The notes: generated by a model not told the origin, from the sequence alone. A DNA stretch of 64,000 bases from Gammaproteobacteria bacterium (GCA_003695825.1 RFHK01000021.1:642-64641), one strand, 5' to 3'; numbered from the stretch's first letter, positions 7,268 through 61,750 are shown. Made by a program: numbers and translations.

Positions 7268-7269
7268 AC

Positions 7270-18493: not shown

Positions 18494-18512
18494 GGCACGA
18501 CTCCCGGCACCC

Positions 18513-19550: not shown

Positions 19551-19978
<428 letters not shown>

Positions 19979-21078: not shown

Positions 21079-21081
21079 GCC

Positions 21082-22137: not shown

Positions 22138-22739
22138 CCCTTCACCGCCTTCTGCAGGGCCTGGCGGATGATCTCCTCGGTGCCGAGCCCCTCGGTCGTG
22201 ATCCCCTGCACCATGCGCCCGGCCTCCTGGGGCTTGTAGCCCAGGGCGACGAGCGCGCTGACCGCCTCGGAGACCGGATCCCCGCCGGGACCGGCCCCTT
22301 CTGCGGCGGCGGGGCCGGCGGCCACGGCGGCCTCGCGGGTACCGAGCCGGTCCCGCAACTCCACGACCAGGCGCTCGGCCGTCTTGCGGCCGATCCCGGG
22401 GATGCGCGTGAGCGCCCGGGCCTCCCCCTCCTGGACACACCGGACGAATTCCGCCGTGGGCATCCCGGAGAGGATCGCCAGCGCCAGGCGTGGCCCCACG
22501 CCGCTCGTGCGGATGAGCGTGCGGAACAGGTCCCGGTCGCGCCGGTGGAGAAATCCGTAGAGGGTCTGGGCATCCTCGCGCACCACCAAGTGCGTATGCA
22601 GCACCAGTTCGCTCCCCTCGGCGGGCAGCTCGTAGAAGGTGGTCATCGGGGCCTCGAGCTCGTAGCCCACGCCGCCGACCTCGAGCCACAGGGTGGGCGG
22701 CCGGCGCCCGGCCAGGCGGCCCCGCAGGAAACCGATCAC
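22134..22739 (-). CDS. ruvA: Holliday junction DNA-binding protein RuvA
   Basis: [26 protein letters not shown], HhH motifs ([16 protein letters not shown]). GTG start. 4-nt overlaps with ruvC and ruvB. Confidence 0.93.
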
Positions 22740-35295: not shown

Positions 35296-35357
35296 CGTCC
35301 GGCTCCGTCAGCCCGCCTCGATCCGGCCGCACCGCGCCCCCGTCACGGAAAAGCGCC

Positions 35358-36128
35358 TCAGGCGGCCTCCTTCTCGCCGGCCGCGTCCCGCTTGCTCGGC
35401 GGCAGGTAGGTCTTGAGCAGTTCCTCCATGACGCGCGGATTGATGCCTTCCTGGATGCCGTTGATGGCCTCGAGGATGAGGCTCTTGTTGAGCCGCTCCT
35501 CCATGGTACGGTGGGCCAGCTTGTCGGCGATGGGCGTGGCGAAGGCGTTGGCGATCACCGCGCCGTACAAGGTGGTGAGCAGGGCCACGGCCATGGCCGG
35601 GCCGATCTTCTTGGGATCGTCCATGTTGGAGAGCATCTGCACCAGGCCGATGAGCGTGCCGATCATGCCCATGGCCGGGGCCACGTCTGCCATGGCCTTG
35701 AAGATCGCCTGGCCGCGTTCGTGCCGCTCGATGGTGAGGTTGATGTCCTTGGTCAGCATGCTGCGCACGAACTCCGGCTCGTGGCCGTCCACGCACAGCT
35801 GGATCCCGCGCTTGAGGAACTCGTTGCCGATCTCCTGGTTCTCCAGGCCCAGCACGCCCTCCTTGCGCGCCACGTTGGCCAGCGCCACGCCCTCGCGGAT
35901 CAGGTCGTTGGGATCCTCGCTCTTGTGGAGAAAGGCCTTGAGCGCGATCTTGAAGGCCGCCAGGAAATGGCCGAGCGGGAACTTCATCAGGACCACGAAG
36001 ATGGTGCCGCCCACCACCACCATCAACGAGGGCACGTTGACGAAGATCAGGGCGCTGCCGCCCATCGCGATGGACCCGATGATGATGCCGAAGGAGCCCA
36101 GCAGCCCCAGGAGTGTCGCCAGATCCAC
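35358..36128 (-). CDS. MotA/PomA-like flagellar stator protein
   Basis: 256 aa. MDLATLLGLLGSFGIIIGSI.., APAMGMIGTLIGLVQML, AVALLTTLYGAVIANAF. GTG start. Confidence 0.9.
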   Translation of the reverse strand: MDLATLLGLLGSFGIIIGSIAMGGSALIFVNVPSLMVVVGGTIFVVLMKFPLGHFLAAFKIALKAFLHKSEDPNDLIREGVALANVARKEGVLGLENQEIGNEFLKRGIQLCVDGHEPEFVRSMLTKDINLTIERHERGQAIFKAMADVAPAMGMIGTLIGLVQMLSNMDDPKKIGPAMAVALLTTLYGAVIANAFATPIADKLAHRTMEERLNKSLILEAINGIQEGINPRVMEELLKTYLPPSKRDAAGEKEAA

Positions 36129-36307
36129 GTCTCACCTCTGTGGTTGTTCTCGACGTCGCGGGCGCATCCTGCACCCCGGACCACCCGGCCCCGATCGTGC
36201 TCCCTCACGGGGCATATCGACCGCCGCGGGGGGAGCTTGAGCCCGTCCCCGCGGGCGCCGATTCCGGTAGAATCCCGGGGCAGACGTGAACCGTCCCGAG
36301 CCCGTCC

Positions 36308-37861
36308 ATGCCGAACGACAGACGCGACCGCCGCCCCGCCCTGCGCCTGAAGGCCGTCGAGATCGACACCTACCGGGAGAACGTCGCCTACCTGCACCGC
36401 AACTGTTCCCTGTACCGCGCGGAAGGCTTCCAGGCCCTCTCCAAGGTCGAGCTGCGCCACGACGGGCGCCGCATCCTCGCCGTGCTGAACGTGGTCGACG
36501 ACGCGAGCATCGTCGGGCCCGGGGAAATCGGTCTCGCCGAGCAGGCCTTCGCGCAGTTCGGGCAGCCCGAGGGGACGGCGGTGGAAGTGGAGCACGCCAC
36601 GCCGCCGGTCTCCATGGAGGCCGTGCGCCGCAAGATGGGGGGAGACCGCCTGGACTTCGGCGACTTCCTGGCGATCGCCCGCGACATCCGCGACTACCGC
36701 TACTCCAAGGTGGAGATCGCCGCCTTCCTGGTGGCCGTCGGCCAGGTCGGGCTGGACCGGGACGAGACCCTGCACCTGACCCGGGCCATGCTCGAGACCG
36801 GCGATCGCATCGACTGGGACGAGCCCCTGGTGGCCGACAAGCACTGTATCGGGGGCATTCCCGGCAACCGGACCTCCATGCTGGTGGTGCCCATCGTGGC
36901 CGCCCACGGCATGCTCATCCCCAAGACCTCCTCGCGCGCCATCACCTCCCCGGCGGGCACGGCCGATTCCATGGAGGTCCTCGCACGGGTCACCCTCACC
37001 CCGGAGGAACTGCACGAGATCGTGCGCCACCACCGCGGTTGCCTGGCCTGGGGCGGTACCGCCCGGCTGGCGCCGGTGGACGACATCCTCATCTCCGTGG
37101 AGCGGCCCCTGGCCCTCGACGCGCCGGAACAGATGGTGGCCTCGATCCTCTCCAAGAAGCTCGCCGCGGGTTCCACGCACCTGTTGCTCGACATCCCGGT
37201 CGGCCCCACGGCCAAGGTGCGCACCCTGGACCAGGCGCTCAGGCTGCGCAAGCGCTTCGAATACGTCGGCGACCGCCTCGGCCTGCACCTGGAGGCCGTG
37301 CTCACCGACGGCCGGCAGCCCATCGGCCGCGGCATCGGCCCGGTGCTGGAGGCCCGCGACGTGATGCAGGTCCTGGAACAGGATCCGAACGCGCCGGCCG
37401 ACCTGCGGCAGAAGGCCCTCCACCTGGCCGGGCGCATCATCGAGTTCGACCCGGACGTGCGGGGAGGGCAGGGCTACAGCATCGCGCGCGACATCCTGGA
37501 ATCCGGCCGGGCGCTGGCGAAGATGAACGCCATCATCGATGCCCAGGGCCGCAACCCCGAGCCCCACTCGCCCGGACACCTGAGCTTCGAGGTGACCGCG
37601 GAACGGGCCGGTTACGTGGCCGCCATCGACAACTACCACCTGGCGCGCATCGCCCGCCTCGCCGGTGCGCCGCTCAGCAAGGGGGCCGGCGTGGACCTGC
37701 TGCGCAAGGTGGGTGACCGGGTGGAGGCCGGCGAACCGCTCTACCGTGTCCATGCCGAGGTCCCCGCGGAATACCGCTTCGCCCGTGAGTACACCCACCG
37801 GCACAACGGCTATACCCTGAGTGAGGCGCCCGTGGAACCCTTCATCCCCATGGATTTCTGA
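36308..37861 (+). CDS. thymidine phosphorylase-family protein (long AMP-phosphorylase-like form)
   Basis: 517 aa. N-terminal extension, then ..[43 protein letters not shown].. glycosyltransferase-family-3 core. Confidence 0.85.
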
Positions 37862-42301: not shown

Positions 42302-42967
42302 ATGAGCACGCCCCTTTCCCCTCTCCTCTCGCTCGTCGTGCTGATCTCCGGTCGGGGCAGCAACCTGCAGGCCATCCTCGAGGCGATCGCCCAGGGGCGG
42401 CTTGCGGCCGAGGTGCGCGCCGTGATCAGCAACCGGCCCGGGGCCGCGGGGCTCGCGCACGCCCGCCGGGCCGGCATCCCGGCGGAGGTGGTCGATCACC
42501 GGGAATACACCGACCGCGAGGCCTTCGACCGGGCGCTCGCGGACCGGATCGACCGGTACCGACCCGACCTCGTCGTCCTGGCCGGTTTCATGCGCATCCT
42601 GGGACCGGAGTTCGTGCGCCGCTACCGGGGCCGTCTGATCAACATCCACCCTTCCCTGCTGCCGAAGTTCAAGGGCCTGGAGACCCATCGCCGGGCACTC
42701 GAGGCCGGTGAGCGGGAACACGGTGCCAGCGTGCACCTGGTGACGGAGGAACTCGACGGCGGCCCGCTGCTGATGCAGGCCCGCGTGCCCATCCTGCCGG
42801 GCGATACGCCCGAGCGCCTGGCGGCCCGGGTCCTGGAGCAGGAACATCGTCTCTACCCGGCGGTCCTGCAATTGTTCGCGGAAGGGCGCCTGACCACCGA
42901 CAGTGCAGGTCGGCCCCGTCTGGATGGGCGACCGCTCGAGCGACCGCTGGCCCTGGACGCCTCATGA
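42302..42967 (+). CDS. purN: phosphoribosylglycinamide formyltransferase PurN
   Basis: VVLISGRGSNLQAI..VISNRPGAAGL..LAGFMRILGPEF..INIHPSLLPKFKGL..HGASVHLVTEELDGGP. Confidence 0.93.
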   Translation: MSTPLSPLLSLVVLISGRGSNLQAILEAIAQGRLAAEVRAVISNRPGAAGLAHARRAGIPAEVVDHREYTDREAFDRALADRIDRYRPDLVVLAGFMRILGPEFVRRYRGRLINIHPSLLPKFKGLETHRRALEAGEREHGASVHLVTEELDGGPLLMQARVPILPGDTPERLAARVLEQEHRLYPAVLQLFAEGRLTTDSAGRPRLDGRPLERPLALDAS

Positions 42968-43133
42968 AGCACGCGCCCTTGCTGCAGTCCCCCGCAGGCC
43001 CGGGCCCAACCGCCACCGGGCATCCTGCCCCGGCTGCACCCGCTCGTCCCCGGCATGGATGCCGCGGTCGAGAGGCGTGCCGGTGGCACGGCGGTGCCGT
43101 CGAACCGGCCTCCCGGCAAGGAGTACGATCCCC

Positions 43134-46100
43134 ATGAGCCGCGCACCCGCCCGGCTGCCGCTGTTGGCCTGGATCATCGCCTGGATCCTCGCCTGGCTCC
43201 TCGCGGTACCGGCTGGCGCCGCCGAGGCACCTCGCCCGGCCGATGCGTCCCTGCAGGCCCTGCTCGACGAGCTCTCCTCCATGCAGGGCCTGGAAGAGGA
43301 GCAGCGCAACCGCGCCATGGCGCGTATCGGCGAGGCCCGGCACTGGATCGAAGAGGCCCGGCGGCTGCGCGCGGCCACGGCACGGTTGCAGCGGCAGGTC
43401 CGGGAAGGGAGCGCGGGCGTGAAAAAGCTGCGTGCCGAGGCCGAGCGCCTGCGCCGGCGTGCCCCGCCCGACTCCACCCGCCTCCAGCATCGCCCGCCCG
43501 GCGAGCTCGAATCCCGGCTCGCGACCGTCCAGTTGCGGGTGCAGGAGGCCAAGCAAGCCCTGGCCGAGGCGGACAAGACGCTCTCCGAGTACCTCACGGC
43601 CGCCACCCAGGGCGGCGAAGAGATCGCCGAGGTCCGCCGGCGCCTCGACGAGACCCGCAATGCGCTCAAGCACCTGGATCAGAACGTCGCCGACCCGCGG
43701 CTGGTCCCGGTCGAAAAGGCCTGGCTCGAGGCGCGGCGCGACTGGCTCGAGGCACGCCTCGAGCAACTCACCCTGCGCCAGGGCAACCTGGCCCTGCTGA
43801 CGGACTGGGCGCAGGCACGGCGCGACCTGCTGGCTGCCCAGCTCGAGTCCCTGCAGAAGGAGAGCGCGGCCCTGCGCGAGGCCCTCCAGGCACTCCGCCA
43901 GGCAGCCGCTGCCCGCGAGACCCGCCAGGCCCAGACCGCAGTACGCGAGACCCCGCCCGAGTTGCGCGGCCTCCAGCAGGAGATCACCCGCATGCTGGAA
44001 GAGAAACAGCGGGTGGTTCGCGACGAGGCCACCACCGCCGAACGCCTGGCGGCCAAGCGTGCACTCCTCGACGAACTGCGCAGCGACCGGGAGCGGGTGC
44101 GCCACCTGGTGGCCCTCGGGGGCCGCGGCAGCACCCTCTCCACCCTGCTGCAGAAACGGCTCGCCGCCCTGCCCTCGCCCCAGCAGTTGCGCCAGGAGAG
44201 CCTGCAGCTGCAACGTCGGCTGAACGCGGCGGTGATGCGTCAACTGGAACTCGACGAGCGCCTGCGCACCACCCGGGACCTGGACGCGGCCCTCGCCGAC
44301 CTGCTGGCACACACCCAGGAGAAGGTGGGCGCGACCCCCCGGGACCAGCTGCGCCGCGCCGCCCGGCGGCTGCTGCGCGAGCGCCGGGACACCCTCGCCG
44401 AGCTGCTCAAGGCCTACACCCGGTACATCAGCCGGCTCTCGGAGCTCGACGGCGACCTGCGCCAGCTCCAGGACCTGGTCGTCTCCTACCGCCGGTACCT
44501 CAACGAGCAGCTGCTCTGGATGCCCAGCGCGCGCCTGTTCCCCTTGCCTGACCCGCTGACCCTGCTGCGCGGGGCCCGATGGCACCTGCGCCCGAGCCTG
44601 CTGGTCGCGGCCGGCCGGGACCTCGTCCAGGGCGCCCACCAGCGTCCGGACCTCGCACTCCTCCTGGCCCTGCTCGTCCTGGTGCCCCTCGGGATGCGCA
44701 GCCGCCTGCGGCGCCACCTCGAACGCCTGGGAGAACGCACCCGCAGCGTCCGGACCGACCGCTGGGTGGCCTCGCTGTTGGCCCTGGGCGATACCCTGGC
44801 CCTCGCCCTGCCCCTCCCCGCACTGCTGGCCGGCCTGGCCTGGCTGTTGCGGCAACCGGACGCTGCGACCCTCGACTCGCGCATCCTCGCCGACGGCCTG
44901 GCCGCCGCGGGCCAGGTGCTGTTCGCCCTGACGTTCCTGCGGGTGCTGTGCCGGCCCCAGGGACTGGCCCTGCGCCACCTGCGCTGGCCGGAGGCCTTCT
45001 GCCACGCCTTGCGCCAGGAACTCATCTGGTTCCTGCCGCTGGCCACGACCCTCACCTACCTCGCCGGCAGCGGCGGCAGTGGAGAGGGTCGCCCGCCCGA
45101 GGTACTGCTCCTTGGCCGGGTGGCCTTCCTCGGCCTGATGCTCGCCACCATGGTCCTGATCTGGCGGCTGGGACGCCTGCGTGCCCCCGTGCTGCGGGAA
45201 CTCGCGCGGCGCCGCCACCCCGGGCCCTGGCTGCGCTACCACGCCCTCTGGTATCCGCTCGCCCTGCTGCTGCCGGCCGCCCTGATCGCCGCTAGCCTGG
45301 TGGGGTACTACTACTCCGCACGCTTTCTGGCCGAGCGGGTCCATCTCACGCTCTGGTCGGTGCTGGCCCTCTACATCGCGCGAGACCTGCTGCTGCGCGC
45401 ACTCGCCCTCACCCAGCGCCGCCTGCGGCTCGAGGAGGCCCTGCGCAAGCGGGAGGAACGCCGCCAGGCCGAGGCGGCCGGCGAGGCCGCCCCGGCGCCC
45501 CAGAGCGACAGCCTGATCGTCGAGGAACCCGAGCCCGACATCGGCCAGCTCAGCGCCCAGGTGCGCCAGCTCGTCCAGACCGGGTACCTGATCAGCCTGT
45601 TCCTCGTCATCTGGCTGATCTGGGCGGACGTGATCCCGGCCCTGCGTTTCCTCGACACCGTGACCCTGCCCATCACCACCTCCAAGACCATCGACGGCGT
45701 CCCGCGCGATGTCCCGCTGACGCTGGGCGACCTGCTCTCCGGGTTGCTGCTGGCGGCCTTCACCCTGCTGGTGGCCCGCAACCTGCCCGCGGTGCTCGAG
45801 CTCACGCTGCTGCAGCGGCTGCCGATCCCGCGCGGCGCGGCCTATGCCATCAAGGCCGTCTCGCAGTATGCCGTGGCACTACTGGGCATCCTGCTGATCT
45901 TCGGTTCACTCGGCCTGAAATGGTCCAGCGTGCAATGGCTGGTCGCCGCGCTCGGCGTGGGCCTCGGCTTCGGCCTGCAGGAGATCGTCGCCAACTTCGT
46001 CAGCGGCCTGATCCTGCTCTTCGAACAGCCGATCCGGGTGGGGGACGTGGTCACGGTCGAGGGCATCACCGGCACGGTCACCCGCATCCGTATCCGTGCC

Positions 46101-46538
46101 ACCACCATCGTCAACTGGGACCGCCAGGAACTGGTGATCCCCAACAAGTCCTTCATCACCGGCCAGCTCATCAACTGGACGCTGTCCGACACGGTCAACC
46201 GCGTGGTCATCACCGTGGGCATCGCCTACGGCAGCGACGTGGAACGGGCACTGGCCCTGCTCGAGGAGGCCGCGCGCGAACATCCCCTGGTCCTGGACGA
46301 TCCACCGCCCCGCGTCACCTTCGAGGAGTTCGGGGACAACGCGCTCACCCTGCGCCTGCGCGCCTACCTCGACGACCTCGACTACCGGCTGGCGATCATC
46401 ACCGACCTGCACCGCGCCATCAACGAGAAATATGCCCAGGCCGGTATCGAGATCGCCTTCCCGCAGCGCGACCTGCACCTGGATACAAAACAGCCGCTCG
46501 AGATCGTGCTGCGCGAGGAGGCGCGTAGGCAGAAGTGA
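43134..46538 (+). CDS. MscK/KefA-type large mechanosensitive channel
   Basis: 1134 aa. Signal peptide, long periplasmic coiled-coil region, about 11 TM helices, C-terminal MscS core (FGLQEIVANFVSGLILLFEQPIRVGDVVTVEGITGTVTRIRIRAT). Confidence 0.88.
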   Translation: MSRAPARLPLLAWIIAWILAWLLAVPAGAAEAPRPADASLQALLDELSSMQGLEEEQRNRAMARIGEARHWIEEARRLRAATARLQRQVREGSAGVKKLRAEAERLRRRAPPDSTRLQHRPPGELESRLATVQLRVQEAKQALAEADKTLSEYLTAATQGGEEIAEVRRRLDETRNALKHLDQNVADPRLVPVEKAWLEARRDWLEARLEQLTLRQGNLALLTDWAQARRDLLAAQLESLQKESAALREALQALRQAAAARETRQAQTAVRETPPELRGLQQEITRMLEEKQRVVRDEATTAERLAAKRALLDELRSDRERVRHLVALGGRGSTLSTLLQKRLAALPSPQQLRQESLQLQRRLNAAVMRQLELDERLRTTRDLDAALADLLAHTQEKVGATPRDQLRRAARRLLRERRDTLAELLKAYTRYISRLSELDGDLRQLQDLVVSYRRYLNEQLLWMPSARLFPLPDPLTLLRGARWHLRPSLLVAAGRDLVQGAHQRPDLALLLALLVLVPLGMRSRLRRHLERLGERTRSVRTDRWVASLLALGDTLALALPLPALLAGLAWLLRQPDAATLDSRILADGLAAAGQVLFALTFLRVLCRPQGLALRHLRWPEAFCHALRQELIWFLPLATTLTYLAGSGGSGEGRPPEVLLLGRVAFLGLMLATMVLIWRLGRLRAPVLRELARRRHPGPWLRYHALWYPLALLLPAALIAASLVGYYYSARFLAERVHLTLWSVLALYIARDLLLRALALTQRRLRLEEALRKREERRQAEAAGEAAPAPQSDSLIVEEPEPDIGQLSAQVRQLVQTGYLISLFLVIWLIWADVIPALRFLDTVTLPITTSKTIDGVPRDVPLTLGDLLSGLLLAAFTLLVARNLPAVLELTLLQRLPIPRGAAYAIKAVSQYAVALLGILLIFGSLGLKWSSVQWLVAALGVGLGFGLQEIVANFVSGLILLFEQPIRVGDVVTVEGITGTVTRIRIRATTIVNWDRQELVIPNKSFITGQLINWTLSDTVNRVVITVGIAYGSDVERALALLEEAAREHPLVLDDPPPRVTFEEFGDNALTLRLRAYLDDLDYRLAIITDLHRAINEKYAQAGIEIAFPQRDLHLDTKQPLEIVLREEARRQK

Positions 46539-50937: not shown

Positions 50938-51519
50938 ATGAGCGAATACGCCCTCATCCTGGTCAGCACCGTGCTGGTCAACAATTTCGTCCTGGTGAAA
51001 TTCCTCGGGCTCTGCCCCTTCCTGGGCGTGTCACGCAAGCTGGAGACTGCCACCGGCATGGGCCTGGCGACGACGTTCGTGCTGACCCTCTCCGCCGTCT
51101 GCAGCTACCTGGTCGACAAGTATCTGCTCGCTCCCTTCGGCCTGGGCTACCTGCGCACCATCGCCTTCATCCTGGTCATCGCCGCCGTCGTGCAGTTCAC
51201 CGAGATGGTGGTCCACAAGACCAGCCCCCTGCTCTACCAAGTGCTGGGGATCTTCCTGCCGCTCATCACCACCAACTGCGCCGTGCTCGGCGTGGCGCTG
51301 CTCAACGTGCAGGAAGACCACGACCTCATGGAATCGGCCGTCTACGGTTTCGGCGCCGCCGTGGGCTTCTCGCTGGTCCTGGCCCTGTTCGCGGCCATCC
51401 GCGAACGCATCCAGGCCGCCGACGTTCCCCGTCCCTTCCAGGGGGCCTCGGCCGCGCTCATGACGGCCGGCATGATGTCACTCGCCTTCATGGGCTTCTC
51501 CGGGCTGATCAAGGTCTGA
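50938..51519 (+). CDS. rnfA: Rnf electron-transport complex subunit A
   Basis: 193 aa. [34 protein letters not shown]. Confidence 0.95.
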
Positions 51520-51522
51520 CCC

Positions 51523-52104
51523 ATGCTGCCGGCCATCCTCGTCCTCGCCACCCTCGCCGGCCTGCTCGGGCTGCTCCTGGGCTATGCCGCCGAGCGCTTC
51601 CGCGTGGAAGAGGACCCCATCGTCGACCAGATCAACGCCCTGCTGCCCCAGACCCAGTGCGGGCAGTGCGGCTATCCCGGCTGCCGGCCCTACGCCGAGG
51701 CCATCGCCTCGGGCGAGGCCGACATCAACCGCTGCGTGCCCGGGGGCGAATCCGTCATCCATGCCCTCGCCGACCTGCTGGGCCGTGACCCCAAGCCGCT
51801 GGCCGAGGACGTGGGCGAGGCGAAGGAAGGCAAGTACGTCGCGGTCATCGACGAGACCCAGTGCATCGGGTGCACGCTCTGCATCCAGGCCTGTCCCGTG
51901 GACGCCATCGTGGGCGCCGCCAAGCACCTGCACACGGTGATCGCCGAGGAATGCACCGGTTGCGAGCTGTGCGTGGCGCCCTGCCCGGTCGACTGCATCC
52001 ACATGGAACCGGTCAAGCCGGACCTCAATACCTGGAAGTGGCCTTCCCCGGCGGACCGCTGGATCGACATCACGCCCCCTGCCGCTGCGGAGTCGGCCGG
52101 ATGA
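51523..52104 (+). CDS. rnfB: Rnf complex subunit B (polyferredoxin)
   Basis: [21 protein letters not shown].. and 2x CxxCxxCxxxCP motifs. Confidence 0.93.
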
Positions 52105-53678
52105 GCTACGACTTCTCCCGACTGCACCGTTTCCACGGCGGCCTGGTGCTGGAGGAGCACAAGCGGGAATCCAGCGAGACGCCCATCGAGACCCTGCCGC
52201 TGCCGGATCTGCTGACCCTGCCCTTGCAACAGCACATCGGTGAGCCCGCCACCCCCATGGTGCGCGTGGGCGAGACCGTGGCCAAGGGCCAGCGCCTGGC
52301 CCGTCCCGAGGGCTACGTCAGCGTCCCCATCCACGCTCCGACCTCGGGCAAGATCGTGGCGATCGGGGACTTTCCGGTCCCCCATCCCTCCGGCCTCAAG
52401 GCCCCGTGCATCGTCCTCGAACCCGACGGCGAGGACCGCTGGTGCGAACCGGAGAACCCGATCGAGGATTACACCGCCCTGGACCCGAGCGCCCTGCGCA
52501 ACCGCATCCGGGACGCCGGGATCGTGGGGCTGGGCGGGGCGGGCTTCCCCAGCTTCATCAAGATGAACCCGGCCACCGGGCGTCCGATCGACCTGCTCGT
52601 CGTCAACGGTGCCGAGTGCGAGCCCTGGATCACCTGCGACGACCGCCTGATGCGGGAACGGGCCGAGGCGGTGGTCGGGGGGATCCATATCCTGCTCCAC
52701 GCCCTCTCGGCCGCGCAGTGCGCCATCGCCATCGAGGACAACAAGCCCGAGGCCATCGCCGCCATGCGCCGCGCGGTCGCGTCCGTCGGCGACGACCGCA
52801 TGCAGGTGGTCGAGATTCCGACGCTCTACCCGAGCGGCGGCGAGAAACAGCTCATCTACGTGCTCACCGGCCGGGAGGTGCCGTCGCAGGGCCTGCCGGC
52901 CGACATCGGCATCGTCTGTCACAATCCCGGCACCATCGCCGCCATCCACGATGCGGTCGTCCATCACCGGCCGCTGATCTCGCGCATCGTGACCGTGACC
53001 GGCGACGGCGTGAAGCGTCCGGCCAACGTGGAGGCGCTCATCGGGACCCCCATGGTGGACCTGATCGAGCACTGCGGCGGTTACACCCCCGGCGCGGACC
53101 GGCTGATCATGGGCGGTCCGATGATGGGCTATGCGCTGCCGGAGGACGACCTGCCGGTCATCAAGACCACCAACTGCCTGCTGGTGGCCACCCGCCGGAC
53201 CCTGCCGCTGCCCCCGCCCCCGCGGCCCTGCATCCGCTGCGGCGAATGCGAGCGCGTCTGCCCGGCCCGCTTGCTCCCCCAGCAGCTCTACTGGTACGCC
53301 CATGCGCGCGACTTCGATCGCATCCAGGACTACCACCTCTTCGATTGCATCGAGTGCGGCTGCTGCGCCCACGTGTGTCCGAGTCACATCCCGCTGGTGC
53401 AGTACTACCGCTACGCCAAGACCGAGATCTGGGAGATCGAACGGGAACGCCGCAAGGCCGAGCAGGCCCGCCAGCGCCACGAGGCACGCCTGGCCCGCCT
53501 CGAGCGCGAGAAGCGCGAACGCGAGGAACGCCTGAAGAAGAAACGCAAGGCCGTGCGCACGGACGGGGACCGGCGCAAGGCCGAGATCGCCGCCGCCCTG
53601 GAGCGGGCGCGCCGCAAGAAGGCCGGCGGCGAGGCGCAGGGTGCCGCAACGACACCGAAGGCACAGGGGGACGACTGA
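52101..53678 (+). CDS. rnfC: Rnf complex subunit C
   Basis: [15 protein letters not shown].., [38 protein letters not shown] / [15 protein letters not shown]-rich tail. ATGA overlap with rnfB. Confidence 0.93.
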
Positions 53679-54709
53679 TGCAGTTCCACACCTTCAGCTC
53701 CCCGCACGTGCACAACGGCAACTCGGTGCCCGCCGTGATGCGGGACGTCCTGCTGGCCGTCTCGCCCGGCGCGGCGCTGATGGTGTACTTCTTCGGCTGG
53801 GGGGTGTTCTTCAACCTCCTGATCAGCTCGGTGACGGCGGTCGCGGCCGAGGCGCTGGTGGTGAAGCTGCGCGGGCGCGAGGTCGGGCCGGTGCTCGCCG
53901 ATCACAGCGCCCTCGTCACCGCGGTCCTGCTGGCCCTCGCGCTGCCGCCCCTGGTCCCCTGGTGGGTGCCCTTCCTCGGGGCCCTGTTCGCCATCGTCCT
54001 GGCCAAGCACCTCTACGGTGGGCTGGGCTACAACCCGTTCAACCCCGCCATGGTGGGATTCGTGATGCTGCTCATCGCCTTTCCCAAACAGATGACCCTC
54101 TGGACGCCCCCGGCCGGCCTGGACCAGCAACGCCTGGACTTCACCGAAACCGCGGCCTGTATCTTCACCCACCGGCTGCCCGAGGGACTGGACTACGACG
54201 CCGTGACCCTGGCCACGCCCCTGGACAAGGTCAAGACGGATCTCGGCACCGGGCGCACCCTGCGCGAGATTCTCACCGCTCCCACCTTCGGCACCCTCGC
54301 CGGGGTGGGCTGGGAGTGGGCGAACCTCGCCTACCTGCTCGGTGGACTGTGGCTGATCCACCGCCGGCGGATCGCCTGGCAGATCCCGGCCGGCATGCTG
54401 GGCAGCCTCTTCCTGGTCTCGCTCGTCTTCTACGGGTACGACAGCGACAACTATGCCTCGCCGCTGTTCCACCTGCTGAGCGGCGCGGCCATGCTCGGTG
54501 CCTTCTTCATCGCCACCGACCCCGTGACCGCGGCGACCACCCCGCGCGGTCGGCTGTGGTATGGCGCGGGGATCGGCCTGATCGTCTACGTCATCCGCAC
54601 CTGGGGCGGCTACCCGGACGGGGTGGCCTTCGGGGTGCTGTTGATGAACATGGCCGCCCCCACCCTCGACCACTACACCCAGCCCCGGGTCTACGGAGCG
54701 CGGCGCTGA
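53678..54709 (+). CDS. rnfD: Rnf complex subunit D
   Basis: [37 protein letters not shown] (FMN-attachment region). 1-nt overlap with rnfC. Confidence 0.93.
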
Positions 54710-55368
54710 TGCGCGGGTTCGCACGACAACTCCTCATCACCGCCCTGCTGCTGCTCGGCTTCGCCGTGATCGGCGTCGGGCTGGTGGCCGCCACCCACGA
54801 GGCCACGAAGGAGCGCATCGCCGAGAACCACCGCCGCATGCTGCTGCGCTTCATGAACCAGGTCCTGCCCCCCGAGCGCTACGACAACGACATCCTCCGG
54901 GACCGCGTCCAGGTCGTGGACCCGCGCCTGGCCCCGCACGGCGAGGCGGTCACTGTCTACCGCGCCCGCCGGCAGGGGCGCCCGGTCGCCGCCGTCTTCA
55001 CGACGGTGGCCCCCGACGGCTACAATGGGCGCATCGAGCTGCTCGTCGGCGTCGACGTCTCCGGGCGCGTCACGGGGGTACGTGTCGTCGACCACCACGA
55101 GACCCCCGGCCTGGGGGACGCGATCGACATCCGCAAGTCGCACTGGGTCGAGGAGTTCCGCGGCCGGCGCCTGGGAGACCCGCCCCTCAAGCGCTGGGCG
55201 GTCAAGAAGGACGGCGGGGTGTTCGACCAGTTCACGGGCGCCACCATCACGCCCCGCGCGGTGGTCAAGGCCGTACGCCACACCCTGCTGTACTTCCAGG
55301 AACACCGAAAGACGCTCTTCACCCTGCCCGTCCCCCGTGCGGGCGGAGGAACCGGAGAAGGCCCATGA
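54709..55368 (+). CDS. rnfG: Rnf complex subunit G
   Basis: N-terminal TM helix. [37 protein letters not shown] (FMN-binding motif). Confidence 0.9.
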
Positions 55369-56057
55369 CCACCACGGTCGACTACAAGCGTATCGCCATC
55401 GATGGGTTCTGGGACAACAACCCGGCCCTGGTGCAGCTGCTCGGCATGTGCCCCATGCTTGCCGTCACCTCCACCGCTGTCAACGGACTCGGGCTCGGGT
55501 TGGCGACCACGCTCACGCTGGTCCTCTCCAACGGCCTCGTCTCGCTGATCCGCAACATCGTGCGCCCCGAGGTCCGCATCCCGACCTTCGTGCTCATCAT
55601 CGCCTCGGTGGTGACGGTCATCGAGCTGCTGATGAACGCCTATGTGCACGAGCTCTACACCATCCTGGGCATCTTCGTGCCCCTGATCGTGACCAACTGC
55701 TCCATCATCGGCCGGGCCGAGGCCTTCGCTTCCAAGCATGCCCTGCTCCCGTCGCTCGTCGATGGCCTGACCATGGGGCTGGGATTCACCGCCGTGCTCT
55801 TCACGCTCGGCATGCTGCGCGAGTTCGTCGGCCAGGGTACGGTCTTCTCCCAGTTCCACCTGCTCTTCGGCGAGGCCGTGCGCGGCTGGAGCACGACCGT
55901 GCTCACGCACTACGAAGGTTTCCTCGTGGCCGTGCTGCCGCCCGGGGCCTTCTTCGGCCTGGGACTGTTGATCGCGCTGAAGAACCTCGTCGACGCCCGA
56001 CGTGCCCGACGCGCACACCGGCGGGCCGCACGGGCCGGTGCGCCGGCCGCCGCCTGA
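55365..56057 (+). CDS. rnfE: Rnf complex subunit E
   Basis: [38 protein letters not shown]. Confidence 0.93.
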
Positions 56058-56071
56058 GGCCTTGGCCGGGC

Positions 56072-56719
56072 ATGAACGCCGGGAAACGCCGGGAACTCTT
56101 CGCCCGCCTGCAGGCCGCCAATCCCCATCCCACCACGGAGCTCGAGTACGGCAACACCTTCCAGCTCCTGGTCGCCGTCATCCTCTCGGCACAGGCCACC
56201 GACAGGAGCGTCAACAAGGCCACCCGCGCGCTGTTTCGCAAGGTGAAAACCCCGTCGGATATGCTCGCGCTCGGCGAGGAAGGGCTGAAACGGCACATCC
56301 GCACCATCGGCCTGTACAACACCAAGGCGCGCAACCTCCTCCGCACGAGCCGCATCCTCCTGGAAAGGCACGGCGGCAAGGTTCCACGGGACAGAAAGGC
56401 GCTCGAGGCCCTGCCCGGCGTGGGGCGCAAGACGGCCAACGTGATTCTCAACACGGCCTTCGGGGAGCCCGTGATCGCCGTGGATACCCACATCTTTCGC
56501 GTCGCCAACCGGACCGGCCTGGCGCCCGGGAGAAACGTACGCGAGGTGGAGGAAAGGTTGCAGCGCCGGGTCCCTCCCGAGTACCGCAAGGACGCCCACC
56601 ACTGGCTGATCCTGCTGGGACGCTACGTCTGCACCGCCCGCAAGCCCCACTGCCGGCGCTGCCCGATCCAGGATCTCTGTGAGTACCGTCACAAAAACCT
56701 GCAGGACGAGCCGGGGTAG
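56072..56719 (+). CDS. nth: endonuclease III
   Basis: FQLLVAVILSAQATD..LPGVGRKTANVIL..VDTHIFRV.. and the C-terminal CTARKPHCRRCPIQDLC 4Fe-4S loop. Conserved rnf-nth linkage. Confidence 0.95.
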   Translation: MNAGKRRELFARLQAANPHPTTELEYGNTFQLLVAVILSAQATDRSVNKATRALFRKVKTPSDMLALGEEGLKRHIRTIGLYNTKARNLLRTSRILLERHGGKVPRDRKALEALPGVGRKTANVILNTAFGEPVIAVDTHIFRVANRTGLAPGRNVREVEERLQRRVPPEYRKDAHHWLILLGRYVCTARKPHCRRCPIQDLCEYRHKNLQDEPG

Positions 56720-56827
56720 GCTTGAAAACCCGGCAGATATGACCTTTACTGCAGCGAGGCCGAAACCTGGCCGGGTCCATCACGGGCAGGTGCCCGGCCA
56801 CAGACGGGGGGCATCACGGGGAAGACC

Positions 56828-57265
56828 ATGGAAGCGATCAGCGAAAAAGAACGGGTGCGCGAGGTCTACCTGCGCACCTGGGAGAAGTACCGTCAACAGT
56901 CGCCGCTGGATGGCATCGAGGAACAGGTGCTCGACGTCATTCTCTCCCATCCCGAGTACCACGCCCTGCTTTCGGACCGGGATCTGGCCCTGGCCTTCGA
57001 GGCCGATCCTTCAGGCGGCATCGAGAACCCGTTCCTGCACATGGGACTGCACCTCGCGATCCGGGAACAGATCAGCCTGGGGCGGCCACCGGAGGTACGC
57101 CGAACCTACCGCAGGCTGCTCCTGCAGCTGGGGGACGCCCATGAGGTGGAACACCAGATGATGCTCTGCCTCGCCGAGGCGCTCTGGGAGTACACCCAGG
57201 ACCCACGGGTGCAAGGGGAGATCGAACGGAGCTACCTCGACTGCCTTGCGCGGCTCGGAGACTGA
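56828..57265 (+). CDS. DUF1841-like protein
   Basis: 145 aa. ..HPEYHALL..ENPFLHMGLHLAIREQIS.. Family name is from memory. Confidence 0.65.
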   Translation: MEAISEKERVREVYLRTWEKYRQQSPLDGIEEQVLDVILSHPEYHALLSDRDLALAFEADPSGGIENPFLHMGLHLAIREQISLGRPPEVRRTYRRLLLQLGDAHEVEHQMMLCLAEALWEYTQDPRVQGEIERSYLDCLARLGD

Positions 57266-57385
57266 GCCCGTTCGATCCCGTCTCCGGGAACCATCCGCTG
57301 CAGGCGCTGTCCCATGAGCTGTACCGACCCAATGGTATGTTCCAGGGGTCGGCGTGTACCAACCAGGCAACACAAGGAGCACACC

Positions 57386-57820
57386 ATGTCCAGCAAGAAC
57401 CCGTCCCATACGCTCAGGACCGTCAACCTGGCGCTCGGCACCGCCTTCGCCGCCACCCTCTCCAGCACGACCGTGCTCGCGACCGAGAATCCCTTCGCCA
57501 GCCAGGAACTCGAGAGCGGATACCTGCTGGCCAGCCATGCGGAAGGCAAGTGCGGCGGTGCGATGAAGAAGACCGCCGAGGGCAAGTGCGGTGGCGAGAT
57601 GAAAGAGAAGATGAAGGAGGGAAAGTGCGGTGACAGGATGAAGAAGGCCGCCGAGGGCAAGTGCGGCGACAAGATGAAGACCATGAAGGAAGGCAAGTGC
57701 GGCGCCAAGATGAAGATGAAGGAAGGGAAATGTGGCGCCAAGGCCAAGGCAAAGAAGCTGAAGGAAGGCAAGTGCGGCGAGGGCAAGTGCGGCGCCAACC
57801 GGAGGAAGCACGCCCAGTGA
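57386..57820 (+). CDS. secreted Cys-repeat RiPP precursor candidate: Sec signal peptide plus 8x EGKCG repeats (HvfA / oxazolone-thioamide metallophore-like)
   Basis: AAGGAG RBS 6 nt before ATG 57386. MSSKNPSHTLRTVNLALGTAFAATLSSTTVLA signal. Core HAEGKCGG..AEGKCGG..KEGKCGD..AEGKCGD..KEGKCGA..KEGKCGA..KEGKCGEGKCGA with Met/Lys-rich linkers. Immediately precedes the DUF692 and DUF2063 genes. Confidence 0.75.
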   Translation: MSSKNPSHTLRTVNLALGTAFAATLSSTTVLATENPFASQELESGYLLASHAEGKCGGAMKKTAEGKCGGEMKEKMKEGKCGDRMKKAAEGKCGDKMKTMKEGKCGAKMKMKEGKCGAKAKAKKLKEGKCGEGKCGANRRKHAQ

Positions 57821-57833
57821 TCCGGAGGCGATC

Positions 57834-58703
57834 ATGACGCATCCCGATTGCCCCGTGCACGGGGCCGGCCTGGGTCTGCGGCGGGTCTTCATGGACCCGC
57901 TCGCAGACCAGGTGCCCGAAAGCATCGGTTTCTTCGAGGTCGCGCCGGAGAACTGGATCGGCATCGGGGGGGCGGCGGGTCGGCTGTTCCGGCAACTCAC
58001 CGAGCGTCACCCCTTCGTGCTCCATGGTCTCTCCCTCTCGATTGGGGGGCCCGGTCCGCTCGACGAACCCTTCCTGCACCGGCTCGCCCGGTTCATGGAC
58101 GAGCACGGGATCACCTGCTACACCGAGCACCTCAGTTACTGCAGCGACGACGGACACCTCTACGACCTCCTGCCCATCCCCTTCACCGAGGCCTCCGTCC
58201 ATTATGTCGCCGCGCGCATTCGTCGCGTGCAGGACCTCCTCGGCCGGCGCATCGCGATGGAAAATGCTTCCTTCTATACCTACGCGCCCGGCAGCGAGAT
58301 GAGCGAGATCGACTTCCTCAACGCCGTGCTCGAGGAGGCCGACTGCGGATTGCTGTTCGACGTCAACAACCTCTACGTCAACAGCGTCAACCACGGGTAC
58401 GATCCGCTCGACTTCCTGGACCGGATACCGGCGGAACGCATCTTCTACCTGCATGTCGCCGGGCACTACCGCGAGGACGAGGACCTGATCGTCGACACCC
58501 ACGGCGCGGACGTGATCGACCCGGTCTGGGCGCTGCTGGAGGAGACCTACCGCCGTTTCGGCGTGTTGCCCACCTTGCTCGAGCGCGACTTCAACATCCC
58601 TCCGCTGCAGACCCTGCTCGCGGAGGTCGAGCACATCCGCGCGCTCCAGCGGCGCTGGCAGGAACGTCCGGGTATGGAGGCTCGCCGCCATGCACGGGGA
58701 TGA
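57834..58703 (+). CDS. DUF692-family multinuclear non-heme iron oxidase (MbnB/HvfB-like) RiPP-modifying enzyme
   Basis: 289 aa. GLGLRR..FFEVAPENW..LHGLSLSIGG..YTEHLSY..IAMENASFY..LFDVNNLYVNSVNHG..YLHVAGH..VDTHG TIM-barrel signature of DUF692 proteins. Confidence 0.88.
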   Translation: MTHPDCPVHGAGLGLRRVFMDPLADQVPESIGFFEVAPENWIGIGGAAGRLFRQLTERHPFVLHGLSLSIGGPGPLDEPFLHRLARFMDEHGITCYTEHLSYCSDDGHLYDLLPIPFTEASVHYVAARIRRVQDLLGRRIAMENASFYTYAPGSEMSEIDFLNAVLEEADCGLLFDVNNLYVNSVNHGYDPLDFLDRIPAERIFYLHVAGHYREDEDLIVDTHGADVIDPVWALLEETYRRFGVLPTLLERDFNIPPLQTLLAEVEHIRALQRRWQERPGMEARRHARG

Positions 58704-59472
58704 ACGCCCCGCCTTCCAGAGGCACCAGTTCGCCTTCACCGCCCACCTGCGCGACCCCGAGCGGGTCCCGGTCCCTCCCGGGGTCGAGGAAAGGCGCATG
58801 GCGGTCTACCGCGAGCTCGTCTACAACAACATCGAGAGCTTCCTCGCCTCCGCCTTTCCGGTGCTACGCTCCATCGACAGCGACGCGGCCTGGCACCGTC
58901 GCGTGCGCCGCTTCCTGATCGACCACCGTGCCCGCTCGCCCTTCTTCGCCGACATCCCCCGCGAGTTCCTGCAGTACCTCGAACGGCAATACGAACCGCA
59001 GGAGGGGGATCCTCCTTTCCTGCTGGAACTCGCGCACTACGAATGGGTGGAACTGGCCCTCTCCGTGAGCGAGGAGACCCTGCCGGATCGGGTGAACGTG
59101 GATGCAACGGACCTGCTCGAACATCCCTTGCGCCTGTCTCCCCTGGCCTGGCCGCTGGCCTACACCTGGCCGGTGCACCGCATCGGGCCGGGTTCCATCC
59201 CGGATGCACCCGCCGGGGAACCGGTGCGACTCGTCGCCTGGCGCGACCGCGAAGACAAGGTGCGCTTTCTCCAGGTCAATGCCGCGAGTGCACGTCTGCT
59301 CGCACTGCTCGATGTACTTACCGATTCAACTCCAGCGATCGATGCCGTACGCGCACTCGCAAGAGAGCTCGATTACCGGGACGAGGATCACCTGGTCTCT
59401 TTCGCTTCCGAGCTGCTCCATTCCTGGTACGAAAAAGACATCCTCCTGCTCGGTCCCACGGGCTCGTCATGA
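58690..59472 (+). CDS. DUF2063-family partner protein (MbnC/HvfC-like)
   Basis: 260 aa. FQRHQFAFTAHLRDP..MAVYRELVYNNIESFL..FLLELAHYEWVELAL. Overlaps the DUF692 gene by 14 nt. Confidence 0.75.
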   Translation: MHGDERPAFQRHQFAFTAHLRDPERVPVPPGVEERRMAVYRELVYNNIESFLASAFPVLRSIDSDAAWHRRVRRFLIDHRARSPFFADIPREFLQYLERQYEPQEGDPPFLLELAHYEWVELALSVSEETLPDRVNVDATDLLEHPLRLSPLAWPLAYTWPVHRIGPGSIPDAPAGEPVRLVAWRDREDKVRFLQVNAASARLLALLDVLTDSTPAIDAVRALARELDYRDEDHLVSFASELLHSWYEKDILLLGPTGSS

Positions 59473-59566
59473 ACTGATTCACACCGAACCCCTGCTTTTC
59501 CAAGGAACTTCTTTCATACCTCCTGGTCTGTTTGCATAGATAAACCACCGCGCAACGGAGAGAGAG

Positions 59567-60031
59567 ATGCCCGAACCGATCGCCCTCGCTTGCCGCTTGA
59601 AAGGTTGGCTGGATGGTACTGGGGCCTATTTCTCGCTGCTCGGTCTACGCCTGTTCATCGCCTGGGAGTTCTGGGAATCCGGCATGACGAAGCTGCATGG
59701 TGAAAACTGGTTCTCCGAGATCCAGGGCGACTTCCCTTTCCCCTTCAACGTGATCCCGACCGACATCAGCTGGTTCATCGCCACCTGGACGGAACTCCTC
59801 GGGGCCCTGGCCATGGTACTGGGACTGGGCACGCGCTTTGCCGCCTTCGCCATGATCGTGCTCGACGTCGTCGCCTGGGTCTCCGTGCACGCCGGCAACG
59901 GCTACAACGTGTGCGACAACGGCTGGAAACTGCCCTTGATCTACCTGCTCATGCTGCTGGCATTGTTCTTCTCCGGTCCCGGCAAGCTGAGCCTGGACCA
60001 CTGGATCGCGCACCGTTACTGCAAGACCTGA
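59567..60031 (+). CDS. DoxX-family membrane protein
   Basis: 154 aa, 4 TM helices. LGLRLFIAWEFWESGMTKL..TELLGALAMVLGLGTRFAAF..FFSGPGKLSLDHW. Confidence 0.8.
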   Translation: MPEPIALACRLKGWLDGTGAYFSLLGLRLFIAWEFWESGMTKLHGENWFSEIQGDFPFPFNVIPTDISWFIATWTELLGALAMVLGLGTRFAAFAMIVLDVVAWVSVHAGNGYNVCDNGWKLPLIYLLMLLALFFSGPGKLSLDHWIAHRYCKT

Positions 60032-60139
60032 CACTGCACCACCTGCCTGGCCGACGGGCATTTTCCGACAACCTCGCCAGGCCTTCCGGCCACCCTCCTG
60101 CCACTGCCATCTCGATGGCAGAGAAATAAAATTTGATAT

Positions 60140-60164
60140 GCGAATGATATTTGTTATCATTCGC
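60140..60164. promoter_or_regulatory. perfect 10-5-10 inverted repeat GCGAATGATA-tttgt-TATCATTCGC with Fur-like half-sites, upstream of the porin-like gene
   Basis: Read directly in an AT-rich patch (aaataaaatttgatatgcgaatgatatttgttatcattcgc), 60 nt before ATG 60224. The operator role is inferred. Confidence 0.4.
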
Positions 60165-60223
60165 TTTCCACACTGCCCCTATCCATGCGAGCTTGGGAGT
60201 CGCCTTTCCTCAAGAAAATTCAC

Positions 60224-61321
60224 ATGGATGCTGGAAACCTATGTCGGTTGCTCTGGCTCCTGTTGCTGGTGGTCTCCGGCCCTTCCCTAGCCGACGAGAG
60301 AGACCGCCGGCACGGCGCGGTCTTGGATGGCATCACCGGTTTTCATGTCGAGAGTGCCGCAACCCTCACCTTTCAGCACGCCACCAGGGCGCCCGATCGG
60401 AATGAGGCCAGTATATCATTCGATCTCGTCCAGACCCTGCCGATGGGCAGAGGCCTGTGGACCCTCTACGTCGAAGGCTCGACCACGCCTCGGGCTGCAG
60501 GGGTGACTGCCACCTTCCCGGCGGCAAATGCCGACGTCGGCACGACACCCGATCACCGGGGACGTGGACGGCTGCAGGTCTCCGAACTGCACTATGGCAT
60601 GGAAACCTCGGACTGGCAGATCGTCACCGGGCTCATCGATGTCACTGCCCATCTCGATCTAAGCGAGGTCGCCAACAACGAGACGACGCAGTTCCTGGCC
60701 ACTCCCCTGGTCAACAATCCGACCATCGCCTTCCCGGACTATGTACCGGGCCTGGCCTGGCATCGCCATGCAAGAAAACACAAGCCCGGGATCGCCCTGG
60801 TGCTCGCCGGCTCACATGGACTCGCGGACAACGCCGGACACTATGCGCGCACCTTTCACCTGAACGCGCACGGCAAGGGCTTCTTCCTCGCTGCCGAACT
60901 GTACGGAAGACGGCAAACCAATGTCTGGCGCACCGGCCTGTGGATGCGAACCGATGCCCTGGTGCGCCGGGATGGCAGCGGCAACGGCCATGCGCGGGGG
61001 ATCTATGGCGTGTTCGACGCCATGCCTGGCGAGCACCTGAGGAGCAACCTACGTCTGGGTATCACCCTGGATGACGTCAGCAAGGCACGGGACTTCGCCA
61101 GCGCCGCGATCCTGCGGGAAAGTGGAGCACTCGCCCTGGGCGCAGGGTTGGCGCTGACCCGTCTTCATGGATCGAAAGACGAACGGCTGGTCGAAATTTT
61201 CGCGCGCTATCGGGTCAACAAGGCCCTGCAACTGGGGCCGCACATCCAATGGGTCGGTCAGCCCGAATCGCAGGGTCCCGATGGCTGGATCACGGGATTG
61301 CGGGTGCGCCTGACCCTATGA
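60224..61321 (+). CDS. secreted, probably outer-membrane beta-barrel (porin-like) protein, family not recognised
   Basis: Signal peptide MDAGNLCRLLWLLLLVVSGPSLA. Alternating-strand pattern, Gly/aromatic-rich turns, ends ..WITGLRVRLTL. Start at the second ATG (60224); the track start is 60185. Confidence 0.55.
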   Translation: MDAGNLCRLLWLLLLVVSGPSLADERDRRHGAVLDGITGFHVESAATLTFQHATRAPDRNEASISFDLVQTLPMGRGLWTLYVEGSTTPRAAGVTATFPAANADVGTTPDHRGRGRLQVSELHYGMETSDWQIVTGLIDVTAHLDLSEVANNETTQFLATPLVNNPTIAFPDYVPGLAWHRHARKHKPGIALVLAGSHGLADNAGHYARTFHLNAHGKGFFLAAELYGRRQTNVWRTGLWMRTDALVRRDGSGNGHARGIYGVFDAMPGEHLRSNLRLGITLDDVSKARDFASAAILRESGALALGAGLALTRLHGSKDERLVEIFARYRVNKALQLGPHIQWVGQPESQGPDGWITGLRVRLTL

Positions 61322-61363: not shown

Positions 61364-61750
61364 TCAACCTCTCTTGCCCAGCAGCTCGATCTGGTAACCA
61401 TCCGGGTCTTCCACGAACGCGATGATGGTAGTGCCGGCGTTCATGGGACCCGGCTCGCGGATGATCTTGCCGCCCCGTGCACGGATCGCCTCGGCCGCCT
61501 GGTAGACGTCGTCCACCTCGATGGCGATGTGCCCGAACCCGGTGCCGAGATCGTAGTGGTCGACGCCCCAGTTGTAGGTCAGCTCCAGCACGCAGCCCTC
61601 CGACTCGTCCCCGTAGCCGACGAAGGCCAGGGTGAACTTGCCCTCGGGATAGTCCTTGCGGCGCAGCAACTTCATGCCCAGCACCTCGGTATAGAAGGCG
61701 ATGGAACGCTCGAGGTCACCGACCCGGATCATGGTGTGCAGAATGCGCAT
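61364..61750 (-). CDS. gloA: lactoylglutathione lyase (glyoxalase I)
   Basis: [79 protein letters not shown]. Confidence 0.95.

Follow-up and report, generated by a model that had tools for sequence, protein, structure and literature searches.

An hvfABCX-type locus for a predicted EGKCG-repeat RiPP metallophore in a gammaproteobacterial metagenome

What is the function of a gene for a small exported peptide carrying eight EGKCG repeats when it is followed by genes for an iron-dependent oxidase, a DUF2063 protein and a DoxX membrane protein? This arrangement occupies positions 57386-60031 of a 64,000-nucleotide stretch of DNA (RFHK01000021.1:642-64641, hereafter the window; 68% GC) from a contig of a Gammaproteobacteria metagenome-assembled genome (MAG). 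Our analysis indicates that the locus is very probably an hvfA-hvfB-hvfC-hvfX cluster. It would belong to the EGKCG branch of the Sec-exported metallophores that are peptides made on ribosomes and modified after translation (RiPPs) and are matured by multinuclear non-heme iron oxidases (MNIOs), with the chemistry read across from characterized homologues.

All four genes are on the plus strand. The first, hvfA (57386-57820, 144 amino acids), encodes the predicted precursor of an EGKCG-type (oxazolin/fontiphorin-like) RiPP metallophore. It is followed by hvfB (57834-58703, 289 amino acids), encoding a TIM-barrel multi-iron oxidase of the MNIO family (formerly DUF692), and by hvfC (58690-59472, 260 amino acids), encoding a DUF2063/PME1 partner with a C-terminal domain of the RiPP recognition element (RRE) type. 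The fourth gene, hvfX (59567-60031, 154 amino acids), encodes a DoxX-family membrane protein of a short subtype. A 13-nt gap separates hvfA from hvfB, hvfB and hvfC overlap by 14 nt, and hvfX begins 94 nt after hvfC, confirming the coordinates given in a first-pass annotation of this DNA. Shine-Dalgarno sites precede both hvfA (AAGGAG at 57374-57379, 6 nt before the ATG) and hvfB (GGAGG), and the tight spacing together with the overlap suggests co-translation. Four weak matches to intrinsic terminators are all intragenic and at chance level (expected 2.6 ± 1.6) and were rejected. A search of the 5′ region and of the 94-nt hvfC-hvfX spacer gave no Rfam match at E≤1.

Profile hidden Markov models (HMMs) from NCBIfam identify each of the four products above its family cut-off. 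The HvfA-family repeat domain NF050137 matches three stretches of the hvfA product with 51.5 bits (cut-off 19.5). The HvfB MNIO maturase NF003818 scores 423.8 bits (cut-off 360), the HvfC maturation protein NF050145 299.2 bits (cut-off 142) and HvfX NF050144 146 bits (cut-off 80). The Pfam assignments agree, with PF05114 at 352 bits for HvfB, PF09836 at 84.7 bits and PF22106 (NGO1945_C) at 83.4 bits for HvfC, and DoxX (PF07681) at 74 bits for HvfX; HvfA has no Pfam match. The first-pass annotation had proposed the DUF692, DUF2063 and DoxX calls from the sequence, naming the placement of the 57834-58703 product in DUF692 and of the 58690-59472 product in DUF2063 as points on which it could be refuted. 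Both placements hold, and the four NCBIfam matches, together with a complete set of iron-binding residues in HvfB, support its proposal of an HvfA-type, cysteine-modifying MNIO/DUF2063 metallophore locus.

The precursor begins MSSKNPSHTLRTVNLALGTAFAATLSSTTVLA and continues with TENPF after the predicted cleavage point. By inspection, residues 1-32 (57386-57481, plus strand) form a Sec-type signal peptide, with K4 and R11 in the n-region, a hydrophobic core at about residues 12-25 and a V-L-A sequence at residues 30-32 that fits cleavage by signal peptidase I after Ala32. This region aligns with the signal regions of 26 homologues, in which an A-x-A-like site is found at the shared position, and the single helix of an AlphaFold2 model of HvfA spans residues 10-28. 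Because the first cysteine is residue 56, HvfA is not a lipoprotein. The predicted mature peptide has about 112 residues (about 12 kDa) and is basic, with a pI of about 9.6.

The core array extends over residues 53-136 (57542-57793, plus strand) and consists of six single EGKCG units with Lys/Met-rich linkers and a terminal EGKCGEGKCG doublet. The eight cysteines are at residues 56, 68, 81, 93, 105, 116, 130 and 135, giving spacings of 12, 13, 12, 12, 11, 14 and 5. All eight EGKCG occurrences in a six-frame translation of the window fall inside the hvfA open reading frame (ORF). The array is also a tandem repeat at the DNA level (periods 36 and 75 nt; Tandem Repeats Finder scores 142-224). Confinement of EGKCG to hvfA and the tandem repeat in the DNA place the array far beyond chance. 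The 144-residue length, the Sec-type signal and the eight units had been recognized in the first-pass annotation, which also described the mature region as almost entirely EGKCG. This last part does not stand, as the units supply 40 of the 112 residues predicted for the mature peptide and the remainder comprises an NPF..L..GY..A segment and the linkers.

An alignment of 27 precursors shows that the terminal doublet is invariant and that a second conserved element, NPFASQELESGYLLA, is found near the mature N-terminus (residues 35-49; 57488-57532, plus strand). Within it P36, F37, G45, Y46 and A49 do not vary; N35 and L42 reach at least 90% conservation. This NPF..GY segment is a possible docking region for HvfC.

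A 15-billion-protein collection contains neither the exact HvfA sequence nor a longer version from an alternative start nor the product of an antisense ORF, and the best database match to HvfA reaches just 75% identity. Genes on either side have been deposited (RMG31412, RMG31414-RMG31418) under generic DUF or hypothetical names. The absence of HvfA next to deposited neighbours suggests that the precursor was left uncalled or was called differently in the public record. Two ORFs antisense to hvfA (57232-57798 and 57011-58000, both minus strand) were rejected as artefacts of a GC-rich genome, having no database record against 2952 plus-strand homologues of HvfA at E≤1e-3.

All nine iron-site residues looked for in HvfB are present. 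H64, H99, E143, D176, H207 and E250 correspond to sites 1 and 2, and N179, D221 and H223 to site 3. Taken in sequence order, the equivalent residues of Methylosinus trichosporium MbnB are H54, H90, E133, D163, N166, H192, D208, H210 and E239, eight of the residues being mapped through a HMMER alignment to MbnB and H64 through H60 of PDB 3BWW (in which H95 corresponds to H99). In the Haemophilus influenzae enzyme, N175, D242 and H244, matching the site-3 residues N179, D221 and H223 here, are each essential for activity. 3BWW is also the closest solved structure (3.7e-79). HvfB falls below the cut-offs of the MNIO families BufB (NF050167, 275.2 bits against 310), MbnB (TIGR04159, 48.4 against 325), ApyH and ChrH. 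These scores mark it as an HvfB-type enzyme rather than a methanobactin or bufferin enzyme. Its closest relatives come from Thiohalobacter, Thiohalophilus, Thiogranum and Ectothiorhodospiraceae; a search for contigs encoding the exact HvfB sequence gave no entry.

The closest structure to HvfC is PDB 3DEE (NGO1945; 2.7e-12). Neither HvfB nor HvfC has a signal peptide, and we therefore expect the two to form a cytoplasmic heterodimer, as do HvfBC, FonBC and BufBC.

HvfX represents a short form of its family. Its hydrophobic segments are present, and 125 of its residues cover 162 positions of the NF050144 profile. Short forms have about 155 residues, score about 131-146 bits and lack a loop of about 40 residues; long forms have about 198 residues and score 199-245 bits. 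Examples among the relatives are a long form at 7662-8258 of L008 and a short form at 4031-4504 of L047. Of 83 related loci, 46 have a long hvfX directly 3′ of hvfC and none has a short one there; the short form occurs in four of them, in each case 1-3.5 kb upstream. A single near-identical contig from a different sample (L085) repeats the arrangement of the window, with the short form downstream. Gene sets of this family are reported to occur "in various combinations", and the short HvfX in the downstream slot is a small architectural variant within a known family.

The class to which the locus belongs is widespread. More than 3,000 HvfA homologues have been reported (PMC11252979), the Buf_EGKCG/oxazolin signature covers about 2,000 proteins, which are 31-506 residues long and have as many as 58 cysteines (PMC12452194), and more than 24,000 MNIO-PME1 loci are found in about half of the Pseudomonadota reference genomes (PMC12668002). 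Its products have been named oxazolin, fontiphorin and gonophorin, and are collectively called captophorins or Buf_EGKCG. Among the best 120 protein matches to HvfA, five to eight cysteines are typical and eight are common, and the spacings usually run at 11-14 with a final 5. The 60 related loci in which hvfA could be delimited have a median of six cysteines (range 3-12), with eight or more in 15. Eight sites, in the upper middle for close relatives, are therefore ordinary, and the earlier suggestion of a very high-valency member finds no support in these counts or in the family maximum of 58. The locus is an unremarkable added member of a named, HMM-curated and experimentally characterized class.

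Among the closest characterized systems are the oxazolin hvfABCX genes of nontypeable H. influenzae (PMC11252979; bioRxiv 10.64898/2026.07.17.739211). The same four families are present, each above its NCBIfam cut-off. Also shared are the precursor's Sec signal, EGKCG as the motif that is modified, the C-terminal EGKCGEGKCG doublet and the MNIO iron-site residues including the three essential residues of site 3, and ECF (extracytoplasmic function)-type regulation is plausible here too. The two systems differ in that the H. influenzae precursor has six cysteines in three AEGKCGEGKCG doublets, whereas the eight found here include six isolated units 11-14 residues apart with Lys/Met linkers. The gene order is A-B-C-X in the window, whereas the H. 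influenzae and Neisseria gene numbering puts doxX first. The host is an uncultured environmental gammaproteobacterium rather than a pathogen. Fontiphorin (fonABC, Fontimonas thermophila) and gonophorin (Neisseria gonorrhoeae) share the combination of an MNIO, a PME1 (DUF2063) protein and an EGKCG-repeat precursor (PMC12668002), and the seven 5-thiooxazoles of fontiphorin are close to the eight candidate sites here. The ratio of isolated to doublet repeats differs, and kinship to FonA and NgoA is judged solely through shared HMMs.

The bufferins Buf1 and Buf2 of Caulobacter vibrioides (bufABCD; PMC11626156) follow a similar logic, with an MNIO and a DUF2063 protein, Sec export, an optional DoxX, 5-thiooxazole chemistry, ECF sigma control and periplasmic copper buffering, the last three being assigned to the present locus by analogy. 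Unlike bufferins, the precursor here is neither DUF2282 nor Buf_6/12Cys and its MNIO is under the BufB cut-off (275 against 310). A bufferin precursor is a small folded protein, whereas the repeat peptide has no confidently predicted fold (AlphaFold2 predicted local distance difference test [pLDDT] 46). Methanobactin biosynthesis (mbnABC) resembles the system in that an MNIO acts on cysteines of a ribosomal peptide to create Cu(I) ligands, and in that the two enzymes can be aligned at their iron-site residues. It differs in that the partner in the window is DUF2063/PME1 rather than MbnC, the precursor begins with a Sec signal and not with a leader peptide, the MNIO scores 48 against 325 on MbnB, and genes of the MbnT, MbnM and MbnN types are missing at the locus. 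The products predicted here are 5-thiooxazoles and not oxazolone/thioamide pairs.

This prediction follows a recent revision of the chemistry. HvfBC puts six modifications on HvfA of H. influenzae, and the product binds Cu(I) (PMC11252979). The modification of HvfA, FonA and NgoA has since been reassigned from oxazolone/thioamide to 5-thiooxazole, which bufferins also carry, and the oxazolone/thioamide structure is kept for methanobactin only (PMC12668002; bioRxiv 10.64898/2026.06.05.730506, 10.64898/2026.07.17.739211). The heterocycle/thioamide chemistry that the first-pass annotation gave for HvfA and the bufferins is thus superseded; the expected change of -4 Da per cysteine is unaffected. 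Oxazolin has a nominal ratio of one Cu per two heterocycles, and fontiphorin, with its seven 5-thiooxazoles, binds up to four Cu and aggregates on loading. In the repeat, FonBC needs position 4 to be cysteine and position 5 to be a small residue, and it tolerates Lys at position 3; all eight HvfA units, being exact EGKCG, fit this rule.

By analogy with these systems we propose the following pathway. The operon would be transcribed from an ECF-type promoter that responds to stress and lies some 70-100 nt before hvfA. In the cytoplasm, the HvfB-HvfC heterodimer would grip the precursor via the RRE-type domain of HvfC, possibly at the NPF..GY segment. HvfB, with mixed-valent Fe(II)/Fe(III) and O2, would then carry out a four-electron oxidation of each EGKCG cysteine to a 5-thiooxazole, resulting in a loss of up to 32 Da for eight sites. 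The modified and still unfolded peptide would be exported by Sec and cut after Ala32. In the periplasm or outside the cell, N/S ligand pairs of the thiooxazoles would hold Cu(I), with a nominal capacity of about four Cu per peptide and possibly more via intermolecular networks, and would buffer copper during metal or oxidative stress. HvfX would be a membrane accessory, dispensable for modification in the systems studied so far.

The first step of this pathway rests on a motif that emerged when the regions upstream of hvfA in related loci were aligned. An ECF/sigma-E-type promoter-like motif, GGAAC-N17-GTC, lies at 57287-57311 on the plus strand and starts 99 nt before the hvfA ATG. Of 57 related loci, 28 carry the pattern G[GA]AAC-N15-19-GTC in the 220 nt preceding hvfA, compared with 3% of background 220-nt windows (169/5708). 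In 25 of the 28 motif-bearing loci the spacer is exactly 17 nt, and the distance from motif to ATG is 66-177 nt. Because the pattern was derived from ten of these loci, part of the enrichment is post hoc. Counting against this concern, positions flanking the searched pattern are also conserved, giving the extended consensus GAAACTTT..caatGTCatA, that is GAAACTT-N16-TCATA. The sigma-E consensus GGAACTT-N16-TCAAA, with its 16-nt spacer, resembles this sequence. PMC2893595 gives the -35 and -10 elements of E. coli sigma-E. The copy in the window is nearly identical to that of its closest relative (L004), and a sigma-70-like promoter is not predicted in the DUF1841-hvfA spacer. The putative ECF-type promoter is the element that is new here, and we infer it from sequence.

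Several observations weigh against this interpretation of the locus or narrow it. The window copy of the motif, GGAACCA..GTCCCA, departs from the consensus at the -10 element, and of the window ORFs scanned against Pfam none encodes an ECF sigma factor. HvfA scores 35.2 bits on the HvfA equivalog model NF050188 (cut-off 95) and lacks the N-terminal Cys38-Cys43 disulfide region of the H. influenzae protein; the failure on NF050188, the single doublet and the absence of cysteines before residue 56 make it a family member and not an orthologue-level equivalent. AlphaFold2 returns a mean pLDDT of 46 for HvfA and no confident fold. For the published design of 17-residue double-EGKCG units forming a beta-helix, we note that the units of HvfA are mostly single and that no beta-helix appears in this model, which at such a pLDDT is uninformative on the idea. 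A short test peptide with one repeat stayed unmodified by FonBC in vitro, and since six of the eight HvfA units are isolated, full eight-fold modification is not guaranteed. Copper sequestration, copper acquisition and defence against oxidative stress are all candidate roles even for characterized members. What the DNA itself shows is the gene content, family membership and conserved catalytic residues of the locus.

The main role of the system could be defence of the envelope against oxidative, hypochlorite or thiol stress, with DoxX and the thiol-like thiooxazoles being redox-active and copper secondary. The hvf operon of H. influenzae is induced by HOCl via the ECF sigma factor RpoE2, together with MsrAB. 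The Neisseria cluster is driven by sigma-E and lies in one operon with the genes for sigma-E and for a ZAS anti-sigma factor that senses redox state, and a homologous operon in Caulobacter is under SigF control. The ECF-type motif upstream of hvfA here points in the same direction, and DoxX homologues are tied to thiol homeostasis. Opposing this, the biochemistry of the class shows Cu(I) binding by the heterocycles, and in Caulobacter, where bufferins are Sec-exported and act in the periplasm under copper excess, DoxX is dispensable for both modification and the copper phenotype. Stress defence as the main role is in our judgement rather unlikely. Copper and oxidative stress are linked, so the buffering and stress-defence roles are not exclusive.

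Periplasmic buffering also has to be distinguished from copper acquisition, in which the peptide would be a chalkophore that is secreted to supply cuproenzymes and then re-imported. This possibility has been raised for oxazolin. Some lineages among Thiohalobacter, Thiohalophilus, Thiogranum and Ectothiorhodospiraceae, the nearest relatives by HvfB, rely on copper enzymes. Furthermore, a porin gene lies immediately downstream of the hvf genes. This gene (60185-61321), encoding a 378-residue OprB-family porin-like protein in an AT-richer spacer, was considered as an export or uptake partner and rejected. None of the 84 related loci has it, the near-identical contig L085 being the one other place where it occurs, and a sigma-70-like promoter of its own precedes it (60104-60160). 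The locus contains no TonB-dependent receptor, no uptake genes of the MbnT/MbnE type and no dedicated exporter. The product is a Sec-exported peptide of about 12 kDa, a design with which bufferins work in the periplasm under copper excess, and characterized homologues are induced by metal excess or oxidants and not by starvation. A chalkophore is therefore unlikely.

We also considered that periplasmic buffering by a typical member of the class understates what is particular to this locus. The mostly isolated EGKCG units with Met/Lys linkers adding Cu(I) sites, the short HvfX in the slot that holds the long form in relatives and the sigma-E-type promoter could define a distinct EGKCG sub-type for copper handling in copper-enzyme-dependent, sulfur- or thiocyanate-oxidizing gammaproteobacteria rather than for generic defence; we regard this proposal as improbable.

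It is very unlikely that the product carries methanobactin-type oxazolone/thioamide pairs instead of 5-thiooxazoles. That structure was the original assignment for HvfA (PMC11252979), and the two are isomers that share the -4 Da shift and absorb similarly at 302-305 nm. However, the reassignment of oxazolin was made by the original authors and by an independent group, fontiphorin, gonophorin and the bufferins carry 5-thiooxazole as well, and the MNIO in the window scores 423.8 bits on HvfB and 48 on MbnB (cut-off 325). Least probable is an unmodified, metallothionein-like periplasmic metal binder rich in Cys, Lys and Met next to an MNIO acting on some other substrate: unmodified HvfA is reported to take about 2-3 Cu(I) and the Met-rich linkers could also bind Cu(I), but hvfA ends 13 nt before hvfB, about 90% of related loci keep the A-B-C order, the operon has no other Cys-rich ORF and the motif is an exact match to the FonBC/HvfBC substrate as defined by experiment.

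As one more environmental example of a widespread RiPP class, the hvfABCX-type metallophore locus adds little new biology. Small repeat precursors like HvfA are probably still under-called in MAGs. The conserved ECF-type motif offers a handle on which sigma factor, and which stress, controls hvf operons in non-pathogens, and a comparison of short and long HvfX could approach the role of DoxX.

The genes around the locus help to delimit it. Across the 84 related loci, hvfA is found in 76, hvfB in 83 and hvfC in 82. The synteny rnfABCDGE - nth - DUF1841 - hvfABC(X) is conserved (50938-57265 in the window; L001, L004, L006 and others) and found again in many gammaproteobacterial relatives; in seven related loci argG follows downstream on the other strand. 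The DUF1841 gene (56828-57265) precedes hvfA in 23 of the 84. Its function is unassigned, and we left it out of the operon with the promoter-like motif sitting between it and hvfA. Between hvfX and argG the window contains the porin gene and gloA (61364-61750, minus strand). Both are absent from all 84 related loci and, with the promoter-like site of the porin gene, are therefore not considered part of the hvf system.

One related locus, L039 (CAVYIJ010000003.1), comes from a MAG labelled "uncultured Halobacteria archaeon". It has a gammaproteobacterial rnfE-nth-hvfABCX arrangement, with an HvfB 65-67% identical to that of the window, and its archaeal label is probably a binning or labelling error.

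The suggestion that the host is a sulfur oxidizer, made in the first-pass annotation, was not retained. Support for it is indirect, from the nearest relatives of HvfB and a single Sulf_transp ORF, and members of the sox, dsr and apr families were not found among the approximately 30 window ORFs scanned against Pfam. Elsewhere in the window are a TonB-dependent receptor (3804-6389), a hemerythrin-domain protein (8945-9457), the Sulf_transp (YeeE/YedE-like) ORF (13105-15285) and a 1211-residue MscK-like mechanosensitive channel (42903-46538). The remaining genes are housekeeping genes (tol-pal, yebC, nadA, aspS, metG, dcd and prs). Five long ORFs picked by GC content at third codon positions (6880-8976, minus; 18117-19640, plus; 20470-22239, plus; 33925-35409, plus; 36047-37804, minus) have no Pfam match at E≤1e-5, and may be wrong-frame artefacts of a sequence with 68% GC or genuine but unknown genes.

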